NCBI GenBank assembly: GCA_043754535.1
Contig: JAYUUN010000028.1
Span: 1 to 53,358 of the forward strand
Direction of reading: 5' to 3'
Length of the DNA: 53,358 nucleotides
Source: Chloroflexota bacterium
GTDB lineage: Bacteria; Chloroflexota; Chloroflexia; QHBQ01
In this document: in pieces, positions 34,546-46,753 of the stretch
Layout of the letters: the number at the start of each line of letters is the position of its first letter
Position numbering within the stretch: the stretch's first letter is position 1
The notes under the pieces: model-generated
Told to the model about the DNA's origin: nothing
Database searches by the model: none
The model's input: only the letters and a program-made list of their open reading frames with translations
Made by a program: the position numbers and the translations under genes

Positions 34546-34622
34546 GGAGGTGTGGTGTAGCGGCCCAACATGCATCCCTGTCAAGGATGAGACCGCGGGT
34601 TCGAATCCCGTCACTTCCGCCA
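34546..34622 (+). tRNA. tRNA-Asp (GTC)
   Basis: Acceptor GGAGGTG/CACTTCC; anticodon arm CATCC-CTGTCAA-GGATG; GGTTCGAATCC; encoded CCA. Confidence 0.97.
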
Positions 34623-38703: not shown

Positions 38704-39597
38704 ATGGACGAGATCGAGCAGCAGTTTGTGGTGGACACGCCAGAGAGCGTGGAGTTCCGTTATACGCTGGCGGGGATTGGGTCACGCTTCTGCGCCGCCC
38801 TGATCGACCACCTGATCATGGGGCTGATCCTGCTGCTGGTCATCTTCCTGGGCGGGATCGCAGTCAACTTCCTGAAGCGGGGTGACGCAGAACTGTCCGC
38901 CTCGCTGCTCACCGCCCTGATCGTGATCGTCAGCTTCGTGGTGCTGGCGGGCTACTATGTGGTGTTGGAGACGGTGCAGCGGGGGCAGAGCATTGGCAAG
39001 CGTGCGCTGGGCCTGCGCGTAATCCGCAAGAGCGGCCTGCCGATCACCTTCAGCGACTCGCTGCTGCGTAATCTCCTGCGGGTCGTAGACTTCCTACCCG
39101 TCTCGTACGCCCTCGGTGTGGTAACCATGTTCTTTGATGGTCAGTGGCGTAGGCTGGGCGACCTGGCGGCGAACACGGTGGTGGTGCGCGAGGGGAATGT
39201 CTACCAACTAAGCCAGATTAGTGTGCGGCCACAAGCTCAGCAGCCAGTTTACGCCGTCAGCAGCGGCAACAATCTCTTGCAGAAGGCGGTGCCATTGAGC
39301 CAGCCCCTGCCCTACCAGCCCCAAGCCGCCCGCGTGCTGTCCGCTGCTGAAAGCGGCATCCTGCCCAGCGGCTACCAGTACGTACCCAACATCGAGCGGA
39401 TGAGCGAGTTCGAGTACCAGTTGGTGCGCGACTACCTGATGCGCCGCCTCGCACTGCCCTACGAGCGGCAGGTGACGCTAGCCCGCGACCTCTCTTACCT
39501 GGTGGCGAACAAGATCGCCCTTCACCAGCCGATCAACAACTATCTGATCTTCCTCAACCAGGCCGCCGAGAGTTATGAGCAGAGCAGGCTACGCTGA
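38704..39597 (+). CDS. RDD-family membrane protein
   Basis: TPESVEF..LAGIGSRFCAALID, GQSIGKRALGLRV and RRLGDLAANTVVV. Confidence 0.88.
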   Translation: MDEIEQQFVVDTPESVEFRYTLAGIGSRFCAALIDHLIMGLILLLVIFLGGIAVNFLKRGDAELSASLLTALIVIVSFVVLAGYYVVLETVQRGQSIGKRALGLRVIRKSGLPITFSDSLLRNLLRVVDFLPVSYALGVVTMFFDGQWRRLGDLAANTVVVREGNVYQLSQISVRPQAQQPVYAVSSGNNLLQKAVPLSQPLPYQPQAARVLSAAESGILPSGYQYVPNIERMSEFEYQLVRDYLMRRLALPYERQVTLARDLSYLVANKIALHQPINNYLIFLNQAAESYEQSRLR

Positions 39598-39703
39598 TCT
39601 CCTACTAAAGGAGGAGGAATTGTCCAGGCTCTGCACAAAAGGGGACAACGATGCTGTCACATTTTGCGACTAAAACAATTCGCTTCAAATCTAACAGAAA
39701 AGT

Positions 39704-39733
39704 TTGACAAAGCATTGTCCGCTATGATATTCT
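39704..39733 (+). promoter_or_regulatory. Sigma70-type promoter about 750 bp upstream of the NlpC/P60 gene
   Basis: TTGACA-18 bp-TATTCT with an extended -10 TG; AT-rich upstream region. Confidence 0.65.
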
Positions 39734-39739
39734 TCAGCG

Positions 39740-40400
39740 CATCACGTAGACAGAGGTTACGGCCTGGTCTACGCGGGTAGGCTTCAGTTACAGCCTACCT
39801 CCTGGCTCACCTTCGGCAACGCTGTTGCTGAGGGCTGAAGCCCAAAACCTTCCTTGCCAAAGTAGTACCCCCGAACGCCAGGCGCGAGTTCCGCGCCGGT
39901 AGCCAGCAGCGATGCGGTTGCCCCTTATCAGCGGCGTTCTCAGCGGCAAGGTAGCGCAGGAGGAGCAGTCTTGTCAATCTCAGGTGAAGCAGGCAACCCG
40001 AACAGCAGACGGTTTCTGGCTTTTAGCCTCATGTTGCTGACCTCGGCAGCCACAATCTTGCCCAAGTTCATGGCCCTCAGCGTGGTTGCGCTCTGCAACC
40101 CTGCCAGCCTTGCTACCCACCTGCAATCCCTCTGCCATATAATAGCGCGTCCCGCTTCGGCTCGGCCCACAGCTACCCTTGCAGTGTCCCCCGCAAAGAT
40201 AGCTAGCAAGCCATCCCGCCAATCGGGGATCAGCCATAGCTACCACCCCCAGGCTATCAGCCGCAGGGTGGTACTCTGCTGCCCGCGCGCCTAGTCGAGC
40301 AGCTAGTCGCCCCACGTCAGCTAGCTGTGGTAGTGCGACTATGCTACAAGCGTTCCAGATACAAGCGGGAAGGAGGTTAGTTGTCAGCTTAAGCTCAGTA
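39740..40400 (+). ncRNA. Putative large structured RNA / very long 5' leader of unknown class
   Basis: More than 15 mostly nested helices found by eye, forming three multibranch domains (39798-39963, 39981-40123, 40150-40370). Confidence 0.6.
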
Positions 40401-40487
40401 CACGTACGCTGCACCCGCAGCCCCGCCCCCGGCCCGAATGTCGGCAAGGCGATCAACCAATACCCCAAAGGATAGAGGAGAATCAAG

Positions 40488-41654
40488 TTGTCCAAACGGA
40501 AGATAGGAACTAAATACGCAGTGGTCATGGCCCTGGTTGCCGTTGCCCTGCTCAGCATGACCGGCAGCACGTTGGCTGCCCCCAAGCCAGGTAGCATCGC
40601 TCGCGTTGCTGGTGACAGCAACGACCGCATCAATCTTCGCACTGGCCCCAGCACCAACTACGAGGTTGACACCCGCCTCGCTGCTGGTGAAGCAGTCGAA
40701 GTCTACGACGGCCCCCGCACCGACAGCGAAGGCAACAGCTGGCTGAAGGTTCGTAACCAAAATGGCAGCGGTTGGATGAGCAGCGACTTCCTCGCCAGCA
40801 CCAGCAGCAAGCCCGCCACCAGCAGCAGCAAGCCTGCCGGCAGCAGCAAGACCTCCCCCGCCACGACCAGCAAGCAGCAGGCTGCCACGAGCAGTAGCGC
40901 GGCTAAGATCAAGATTGGCGGAGCGGTTGTGGTCAAGGATGCTGCCAACGCTGGCTTGCGTATCCGCAGCAAGGCAAATGGCAACAGCACAGTGCTGGCA
41001 ACAGTTGACCCTGGTACAGTATTGCGCGTGCGTGCCGAGCCAGTGACCGACGGCAGCGGCCAGCAGTGGTATCCGGTCAACGGTCGCTACACCGTCGGCT
41101 GGGTCGCCAGCGACTACATTGCCCCCAGCAAGGCCGCTGCGCCCCAAGTCAACACCAAGACCGCCGCAGTACAGGCCGCCGCAGTGCAGGCACTGACCAC
41201 TGCCCGCACTGGCGTTTCGCGCAGCCCCCGCCCCAGCACTGACGACACGGCTAGCCGCCCTGCCCCAGCCGTCAACGGCCAGGCTGGTGACATGGTGGCT
41301 GGTGCCTACCGCTATCTCGGCTACCGCTATGTCTACGGTGGCGACAGCCCCCGCAGCGGCTTCGATTGCAGCGGCTATATCGCCTATGTGATGAACAATA
41401 CAGGCTGGAGCATCGGCCACAGCCTCAGTCAGCAGCTTGCCAGTGGCCCCCACGTGGCTATGGCTAACCTCCAGCCAGGCGACCTCGTCTTCTTCGCCAA
41501 CACTTACCATCGTGGCCTGTCGCACGTCGGGATGTATATCGGCAACGGTAACTTCATCCACGCCGAGAGCGAGGCCACTGGCATCCGCATCAGCGACCTC
41601 TATTCGAGCTACTACCAGGCTCACTACTACTCTGCCACTCGCCCGACCCGCTAA
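40488..41654 (+). CDS. Secreted SH3-SH3-NlpC/P60 (C40) peptidoglycan endopeptidase
   Basis: Signal peptide; two SH3b repeats (INLRTGP...GWM; LRIRSK...GWV); YVYGG..FDCSG, PGDLVFF, HVGMYIGNG and FIHA. TTG start after AGAGGAG. Confidence 0.92.
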   Translation: MSKRKIGTKYAVVMALVAVALLSMTGSTLAAPKPGSIARVAGDSNDRINLRTGPSTNYEVDTRLAAGEAVEVYDGPRTDSEGNSWLKVRNQNGSGWMSSDFLASTSSKPATSSSKPAGSSKTSPATTSKQQAATSSSAAKIKIGGAVVVKDAANAGLRIRSKANGNSTVLATVDPGTVLRVRAEPVTDGSGQQWYPVNGRYTVGWVASDYIAPSKAAAPQVNTKTAAVQAAAVQALTTARTGVSRSPRPSTDDTASRPAPAVNGQAGDMVAGAYRYLGYRYVYGGDSPRSGFDCSGYIAYVMNNTGWSIGHSLSQQLASGPHVAMANLQPGDLVFFANTYHRGLSHVGMYIGNGNFIHAESEATGIRISDLYSSYYQAHYYSATRPTR

Positions 41655-41690
41655 CCTTGCCAATAGCTTGGTAGCAGTACACGGTCAAAG

Positions 41691-41726
41691 ACGAACCTCT
41701 CTCCGCAAGTTGGAGAGGGGTTTCGT
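41691..41726. terminator. Terminator hairpin between convergent genes
   Basis: AACCTCTCTCC-GCAAGTT-GGAGAGGGGTT. Confidence 0.7.
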
Positions 41727-41762
41727 GTTGCTCGTCAGGTTTGCAGCCCGAATAAGGGGCGA

Positions 41763-42653
41763 TCAGGCTCCACCTTCGTGCGCTACGTAGACGGCCAGTG
41801 CGTCGCCAACCCGCACACCGAGGCGGCGGGCTGCCGAGCCGTTGCGCGCCGCCAGTTCGAGCAGCAACTCGCTGCCTACGAGGCCAAGCAGCGCACCCTC
41901 CTCCACAGCGGCATAGGTGTGGTGGATGGGGAAGACATTATCGCGGCCCACTGTGGCGCGCAGGTGGCTGAAGTCGGGGTCGAGGCGGGCCAGTTGGTCG
42001 CGGTGCAAGTTGCTGATCAGGTTGCCAAAGCGGTCAATGTGGATCACCTGACCCACTAGCCGCTGGCGGGCTGGCTCTGGCTGGGGGCTGAGGTTGGGCA
42101 GGAGAACAGGATTGAGGACGGCGGGGCCGAACTCGCCCCCTGGCACGCCGAGGCTGAGGTGGGCGGCGGCGGGGGCGAAGATGTCGCGCCCATGGAAAGT
42201 ATTGCTGACCGTCGCCAGGGAGTAGGCCGGGTTCTTCAGTTCGTAGAGCGGCAACGGTGGGTCGTCGGCCAGCCCCTCAAGGTCGAAGGGTGAAACCGCA
42301 AAGGGTAGTTGCTCCCGGTCAGCACGCAGCAAGTGACGTTCAACCAGGTAGATATAGCTGAGAATGCCATTATCGGGGCCGATGAAGCGACCATGCGGCG
42401 TTTCGAGCAGCAAGCAGCGGCGGTCGCTACCCACCCCAGGGTCAACCACCGCCAGGTGGATCGCGTGGGGCGGGAAGAAGCGGTAGGCGCGGTAGAGGAC
42501 GAAAGCGGCCATCGCCACGTTCTGGGCGGCCACCTCGTGGCTGAGGTCAACAACGGTGGCTGCCGGGTTGATCGTGTAGATCACCCCCTTGATCGCGCCC
42601 ACGTAGCCATCGCCCAGGCCAAAATCAGTAGTCAGGGTAATCAAGCTATCCAT
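41763..42653 (-). CDS. SAM hydroxide adenosyltransferase / chlorinase-fluorinase family (DUF62)
   Basis: ITLTTDFG, VVDPGVGS.R, GPDNG, SNTFHGRDIFAPAAA and IDRFGNL. Start set to ATG 42653. Confidence 0.9.
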   Translation of the reverse strand: MDSLITLTTDFGLGDGYVGAIKGVIYTINPAATVVDLSHEVAAQNVAMAAFVLYRAYRFFPPHAIHLAVVDPGVGSDRRCLLLETPHGRFIGPDNGILSYIYLVERHLLRADREQLPFAVSPFDLEGLADDPPLPLYELKNPAYSLATVSNTFHGRDIFAPAAAHLSLGVPGGEFGPAVLNPVLLPNLSPQPEPARQRLVGQVIHIDRFGNLISNLHRDQLARLDPDFSHLRATVGRDNVFPIHHTYAAVEEGALLGLVGSELLLELAARNGSAARRLGVRVGDALAVYVAHEGGA

Positions 42654-46668: not shown

Positions 46669-46753
46669 GCCGAAGTGGCGGAACGGCAGACGCATTCGCC
46701 TCAAAAGCGAACGGTTAACAGCCATGTGGGTTCGAGTCCCACCTTCGGTACCA
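46669..46753 (+). tRNA. tRNA-Leu (CAA)
   Basis: Acceptor GCCGAAG/CTTCGGT; anticodon arm TTCGC-CTCAAAA-GCGAA; long variable arm; GGTTCGAGTCC; encoded CCA. Confidence 0.97.

Follow-up and report, generated by a model that had tools for sequence, protein, structure and literature searches.

Genes and signals in the gap

The window, which is the whole 53,358-nt stretch of Chloroflexota DNA that was analysed, carries an RDD-family gene (38704-39597) and a gene for a secreted SH3 and NlpC/P60 peptidoglycan hydrolase (40488-41654), both on the + strand. Between the RDD-family gene on the left and the hydrolase gene on the right there are 890 bp without an annotated gene. The preliminary description of this DNA reported a gap of that length, and it is found at 39598-40487. 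The hydrolase matches the Pfam families NLPC_P60 (3.4e-27) and SH3_3 (1.4e-22). Its Ser/Ala-rich low-complexity linker (40795-40832) attracts many unrelated metagenome contigs, which is a mapping artefact. When the whole window is compared with Rfam at gathering score, the only matches are two tRNA genes (34546-34619 and 46669-46750). The DNA of the window is also present in sediment, glacier and freshwater metagenome runs.

The locus can be followed through five genomes of one family. G000 is the window's own genome, G001 is a sister genome of the same genus, and G002, G003 and G004 belong to a second genus. They amount to only about three independent lineages (G000/G001, G002/G004 and G003). 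A DNA search of 41 related genomes, G000 included, gives one other full-length match to the gap, in G001 at 93% identity. Five further matches in this search are 24-38 nt long and at chance level. In G002, G003 and G004 about 1 kb of gap precedes the orthologous hydrolase, and these gaps are connected by nhmmer at E ~1e-7. All five family genomes have a long gap at this place. The RDD gene is upstream of it in four of the five; it was not seen in G004, where the locus reaches the contig end.

A sigma-70-type promoter lies at 39704-39733 on the + strand. It consists of TTGACA (39704-09), 18 nt, and TG-n-TATTCT (TATTCT at 39728-33), with 10 of 12 consensus matches. A consensus scan finds no second + strand promoter-like site within 39400-41900, and the homologous promoter is likewise the only + strand promoter-like match in the second-genus loci L012 and L011. 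In the five-genome alignment AAAGTTTGACAA is invariant (5/5), and TG-n-TAT(T/C)CT follows 17-18 nt downstream. The preliminary description placed a promoter at the left end of the gap, and one is present there. Judged from the spacing, transcription would start near 39740.

The conservation extends upstream of the -35 element. A block at 39637-39703 (+ strand) is alignable in all 5 genomes. Within it a short T run comes after an imperfect palindrome, GACAACGATGCTGTC (39644-58). When G002 is compared with G004 the homology starts abruptly at the equivalent block, and DNA further upstream is unalignable. The block may serve as an operator or an UP-like element, or it may weakly terminate transcription of the upstream gene.

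A simple consensus scan finds no + strand terminator-like site in 39400-41900. In L012 and L011 it likewise finds none from the homologous promoter through the hydrolase gene. This agrees with the earlier statement that no terminator separates the proposed RNA from the hydrolase. Since no promoter-like or terminator-like site intervenes, we infer that the hydrolase is co-transcribed with the sequences in the gap and is the last gene of the transcription unit.

A small gene and a spacer

The gap contains an unannotated ORF of 107 aa with a TTG start (39971-40294, + strand). Its SD, start and stop are conserved: the frame is open from the same SD/TTG-TCA start to the same TAG stop in all five genomes, over 107-127 codons. 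Its dN/dS between G000 and G001 is 0.38, lower than in any of the other five frames. The G002/G004 pair has 28 synonymous and 22 nonsynonymous changes in it and a dN/dS of 0.23. Four other frames give 0.83-1.92 over both pairs (0.97-1.49 for G002/G004). The antisense frame that shares the ORF's third positions gives 0.31-0.51 (0.31 for G002/G004), and a low value is expected there because those positions are shared. GC3 also exceeds GC2 in the ORF. With these signals the ORF is very probably coding.

The N-terminal half of the predicted protein is hydrophobic and helical; the tail is disordered and basic, with a net charge of +7 to +11. An AlphaFold2 model of low confidence (pLDDT 54.6) places helices at 10-42 and 44-59. 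Pfam has no match for the protein, NCBIfam has none for it or for four relatives, and the ESM Atlas returned no usable match. A profile of the five proteins finds uncharacterised relatives in public collections (P0002, P0003 and P0005-P0007), which share the C-terminal ...RQQAVLGVQRA. Among 1.84 billion representatives there are only 5 related clusters at E up to 1e-10. We conclude that the ORF probably represents a fast-evolving small protein gene, a member of a tiny lineage-restricted family that matches no described one in these collections.

The 193 nt from the small ORF to the hydrolase (40295-40487, + strand) hold the hydrolase's ribosome-binding site and have no fold signal. This spacer diverges between G000 and G001 by 0.120, just below the 0.147-0.165 of synonymous sites. 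One motif in it, ATGC, 7-8 nt and GTTCCAG (40341-58), is conserved in 5/5 genomes, with no convincing SD before the ATG. The differences from G001 are three-periodic, with 17 of 25 in one codon phase, and this may be chance. A second ORF at 40341-40475 (44 aa), the sole one in that phase, was considered for this part of the spacer and rejected, as its frame is not conserved. It meets a stop after 5-7 codons in G003, differs by a 1-nt indel between G002 and G004, and in G001 has both a -1/+1 frameshift pair and, in the homologous frame, a stop.

Two other start-like signals occur near the hydrolase. At 40370-40392 a mini-ORF of three codons, TTG TCA GCT TAA, comes after a strong SD, AAGGAGG. 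It is probably non-functional because its start codon is lost in G001. In L011 (the locus of G003) there is an upstream SD and ATG about 120 nt before the equivalent of the hydrolase's TTG start. This ATG is in frame with the hydrolase and would add a basic N-terminal extension. The same upstream ATG opens a separate ORF of 27-29 codons in G002 and G004, and the true hydrolase start in the second genus is uncertain.

The proposed 5' leader and its rivals

That leaves the 231 nt at 39740-39970 (+ strand), which would be the 5' leader RNA of the unit. They comprise the 5' hairpins and domain 1 of the preliminary description. In 5/5 genomes they lie on the sense strand between the promoter (39704-33) and the SD/TTG (39957-73). 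The proposed fold has two 5' hairpins, P1 and P2, and a branched domain closed by P3. P1 (39745-51/39767-73) and P2 (39775-82/39793-800) appear in both the minimum-energy and ensemble structures, and P3 (39849-58/39945-54) has an ensemble probability of ~0.95. P3 encloses helices at 39873-79/39933-39, 39881-86/39892-97 and 39898-922. A further hairpin (39804-42) is specific to the genus.

The fold is stronger than chance. The leader through 39973 has a z of -3.14, and 0/200 shuffles are at least as stable. It contains 6 perfect stems of at least 7 bp (39740-39970) against a shuffle mean of 1.5, a count that 2/300 shuffles reach. Pervasive nested pairing had been described for the whole region; folding in excess of shuffles is present in 39740-39973 and absent from the ORF part and the spacer. 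In the second genus the leader of G002 has a z of -1.94 (9/200 shuffles as stable), and that of G003 has a z of 0.00 (99/200 as stable).

In each of the three pairwise comparisons the leader diverges less than any other segment. G000 and G001 differ in it by 0.039, against 0.147-0.165 at synonymous sites of three flanking genes. For G002 and G004 the figures are 0.067 against 0.400 at hydrolase synonymous sites, and for G002 and G003 they are 0.28 against 0.47 for the ORF and spacer. Strain variants seen in three DNA runs tell of 4 differences in 2.2 kb, with 0 in the leader. Every pair of the 5' hairpins and of all domain-1 helices is kept in G001, and the three changes there are all to G-U.

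P1, P2 and P3 form in 5/5 genomes with compensatory changes, in a hand alignment whose strands were matched between genera with invariant flanks as anchors, and the counts lean towards structure because the strands were aligned by hand. P1 keeps 6-7 pairs in every genome, and at 4 of its 7 pairs both bases differ between the genera. P2 has 8 kept pairs and 1 double change. P3 keeps 9 pairs, also with 1 double change, a G-C to C-G swap. Within the second genus (G002-G004) the structure has 5 pairs with double changes that are still paired; 0/500 shuffles reach 5, and slid controls give 0-1. Folded alone or together with G003 and G004, G002 yields P1, P2 and a long helix that closes around two hairpins. 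The 3' strand of P3, GGCAAGGUAG (GG-N-A-N-GGUAG), ends 3 nt before the SD in 5/5 genomes, and the order GGUAGC, 3 nt, GGAGG, 7-8 nt, TTG TCA is conserved in all of them. We argue that the leader is probably a functional structured RNA.

The interior of the leader is unalignable between the two genera. This difference argues against a shared aptamer core. The window's leader was found neither by a covariance model built from the second-genus leaders (E up to 10) nor by their nhmmer profile. An RNAalifold analysis of a MAFFT alignment of all five leaders was dropped, since the two genera are misaligned in it. We also rejected CCTACCTCC as one conserved anti-SD motif; it is the 3' arm of P2 in the window and the 5' strand of P3 in the other genus.

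The distribution of the leader is narrow. It is single-copy in an nhmmer search of the window's genome. G000 and G001 each have a paralogous SH3-NlpC/P60 hydrolase, 53% identical (L038, contig C90 14301-15476; L039, contig C83), whose upstream gap is only ~100 nt, and neither locus matches the leader or the small ORF. Searches with nhmmer and tblastn found nothing at 25 hydrolase loci of the order's two other families, including the unpublished G007, G012 and G015. A motif pattern run on 401 genomes of the phylum has 2 matches outside G000, which is chance level because the reversed control pattern gives 3. A pattern scan of metagenomes recovered only the same organism, as two identical contigs that are 888/890 identical to the window, and added no diversity. 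The best reading of these searches is that the leader is lineage-restricted and probably confined to one Chloroflexia family.

It is worth considering what RNA evidence there is. The metatranscriptome library X12 has one identical contig over 39500-41700. It is 208 nt long and lies wholly on the leader (39756-39963), beginning 16 nt after the proposed start and ending 8 nt before the start codon. A 208-nt piece placed at random would fall inside the leader in about 24 of 1994 positions (~1.2%). X12 has no identical contig over the ORF or the hydrolase, and holes between contigs prove nothing. The contig comes from one run at a depth of 2.6, carries no strand or true ends, and could be DNA carry-over. 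This hints at transcription of the leader, perhaps at a higher level than the rest, but does not prove it.

One can imagine from this contig that the leader is a stable small RNA of ~210-230 nt that is ended or processed near the SD, with the ORF and hydrolase expressed by read-through or from minor transcripts. The contig does stop inside the SD, nothing identical covers the genes behind, and the leader is more conserved than they are. However, contigs at such a depth show neither true ends nor relative levels, and there is no intrinsic terminator-like site near 39965. The 3' strand of P3, the SD and the start codon are contiguous in 5/5 genomes, as one would expect of a cis element, and the presence of one copy in the genome also speaks against a small RNA. 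We consider this scenario unlikely.

Another scenario is that the conservation reflects DNA-level signals (operators or an antisense promoter) or a long unstructured UTR, and that the structure is incidental. The flat z of G003 fits this, and the minus strand of the window's leader also folds well (z = -2.30). In L012 and L011 a minus-strand promoter-like site lies over the conserved GGTAGC...TTGTCA. These sites are at L012 880-909 and L011 847-875, and the window's equivalent is at ~39949-39977. It is possible that they are an antisense promoter in the second genus, or a coincidence. In the window, however, the antisense -10 is too poor to be reported, and the RNA contig reaches ~20 nt past the proposed antisense start. 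The double changes occur in arms that flank loops of ~15 nt in this genus against 29-35 nt in the other. Operator half-sites are unlikely because the loops between compensated arms differ so much in length. A purely DNA-level or unstructured explanation is quite improbable.

The weakest alternative is the one originally put forward, in which 39740-40487 forms one non-coding RNA or cis-regulator, ~750 nt long and made up of three closed domains. All 12 of the two-arm helices named for it are present in the sequence and pair fully, with 6-11 pairs each. The whole 748 nt, compared with only 20 shuffles per strand, has a fold z of -2.58 (+ strand) and -1.91 (- strand), and there is no internal terminator-like site. 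Outside the leader this support disappears. The ORF part has a z of -1.61 (39974-40294; 8/100 shuffles at least as stable) and 4 perfect stems of at least 7 bp against a shuffle mean of 3.2 (39971-40294; reached by 123/300). The spacer has a z of +0.49 (40295-40490; 133/200 at least as stable), and the ORF and spacer together (39971-40487) have 11 such stems against a mean of 7.0 (28/300). The nested complementarities of 6-8 bp outside the leader are what chance gives in GC-rich DNA, because only the leader exceeds shuffles in both fold stability and stem count.

The helices of the other two domains show no conservation either. G001 keeps 4 of 8 pairs in the closing helix of domain 3, and 5 of 7 in each of the helices 40160-66/40294-300 and 40304-10/40335-41. 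A strain variant at 40369 also falls in the domain 3 closing helix. The closing helix of domain 2 is unchanged in G001 and hence uninformative. About 324 of the 748 nt are the conserved ORF, and we conclude that its codons account for domain 2 and for the larger part of domain 3. With a coding signature and conserved start and stop in the middle of the proposed RNA, shuffle-like folding there and in the spacer, broken helices, and spacer divergence near the synonymous level in the sister-genome pair, the one large RNA is already largely refuted and we regard it as very improbable. What survives is a structured element close to the promoter and ahead of the autolysin gene, but neither the proposed size nor the three domains.

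Proposed mode of action and known systems

We return to the most probable reading, a structured leader that acts in cis. The unit would run in the order leader, small ORF (39971-40294), 193 nt, and the SH3-NlpC/P60 hydrolase gene, with the strong, conserved promoter at 39704-33 starting the mRNA near 39740. The leader would probably determine how readily ribosomes reach the SD and start codon of the small ORF, and it may also affect how stable the transcript is. The closing helices had been said to cover or abut SD-like AGGAGG tracts. The closing helix of domain 1 does cover one, and that is the real ribosome-binding site of the ORF. Here CCUCCUG (39798-804, + strand) is complementary to the SD, CAGGAGG (39957-63, + strand). 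In the proposed mechanism the SD pairs alternatively with this upstream CCUCCUG or with the start-codon region, and the expression of both the small protein and the hydrolase would be set through SD access on one mRNA.

The pairing evidence for this step is mixed. The two strands pair perfectly in G000 and G001 (7/7), and the equivalent in G002-G004 has only 5-6 of 9 pairs. In the window's genus the pairing of CCUCCUG with CAGGAGG costs three pairs of P2. The ensemble of the window's leader predicts an SD and start codon that are paired for the most part, with a probability of ~0.44 for pairing of the first SD bases to the start-codon region and of ~0.38 for pairing of the last two G to the anti-SD. 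That SD sequestration is the leader's mode of action is a tentative idea, and we lean somewhat against it.

The promoter motif, the conserved leader sequence with P1, P2 and P3, the coding signal of the ORF and the occurrence of the leader in an RNA library are shown. There are only about three independent lineages, so SD sequestration as the mechanism is inferred, as are co-transcription, the exact start and any sensed signal. The fuller claim, an undescribed cis-regulatory leader together with a small-protein and NlpC/P60 operon in one transcription unit of uncultured Chloroflexia, stands at about even in our judgement. A bolder proposal would make the 231-nt leader an RNA sensor of a new class, whether riboswitch-like or responsive to temperature or protein, or else a stable small RNA with a dual function; it would gate a small membrane protein and the hydrolase. 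This is doubtful. If it were true, the hydrolase would have a new partner or regulator in the small protein with the basic tail, and the hosts would be Chloroflexia that so far come from metagenomes only, here those of ice, glacier, freshwater and sediment samples.

The best reading is that the leader is undescribed and narrowly distributed and that the small gene is new, with support from few lineages. At the level of annotation the locus is corrected, since the seemingly empty 890 bp hold a small protein gene of a tiny lineage-restricted family. The leader is a candidate regulatory RNA before a wall hydrolase operon in Chloroflexia, where the regulation of wall turnover has hardly been studied. 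There is also a general lesson. Long gaps in GC-rich DNA that look structured should be checked for small ORFs first.

The leader does not belong to a known RNA family in the searches made. A search of 39500-40600 against Rfam at E up to 10 gives 6 weak matches (E 1.5-9), mostly to eukaryotic miRNA, snoRNA and lncRNA models, all far below gathering score. The large bacterial ncRNAs and leaders described in Rfam 15, among them OLE, GOLLD, HEARO, ROOL, raiA, RNase P, tmRNA and the group II intron, have no match. The preliminary description had seen no sign of RNase P, tmRNA, a group II intron or a c-di-AMP riboswitch, and it was right in this: no such Rfam match occurs at E up to 10.

Leaders that sequester the SD control translation in translational riboswitches and RNA thermometers. 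The Chloroflexia leader resembles them in that an upstream CCUCC strand can pair with GGAGG at the base of a large stem-loop domain. It differs in that the anti-SD pairing is perfect only in the window's genus, and it is much longer than a typical RNA thermometer. As for transcription attenuators, the consensus scan found no intrinsic terminator in the leader. In Gram-positive bacteria some DL-endopeptidase genes, cwlO of Bacillus subtilis among them, have long 5' leaders that are said to affect mRNA stability. Like the cwlO leader, the one described here is a long untranslated stretch before the gene of a secreted NlpC/P60 endopeptidase. Unlike it, the Chloroflexia leader has conserved helices and a small ORF interposed before the hydrolase.

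The ydaO/yuaA c-di-AMP riboswitch precedes NlpC/P60 and other wall hydrolase genes, for example nlpC of Corynebacterium glutamicum (PMC9960051). Both systems place a structured leader before an NlpC/P60-type wall peptidase, which presumably ties wall hydrolysis to a signal. They differ in that the Chloroflexia leader directly precedes a small ORF, has no terminator-like site that the scan could find, and occurs in one Chloroflexia family only. The leader is not a member of the ydaO class, because the Rfam model of that riboswitch does not match it even at E up to 10. The c-di-AMP riboswitch before NlpC/P60 genes is nevertheless its nearest functional analogue. If the leader does sense a signal, there would be two unrelated RNA answers to one problem, this leader and the c-di-AMP riboswitch that serves NlpC/P60 genes in other phyla.
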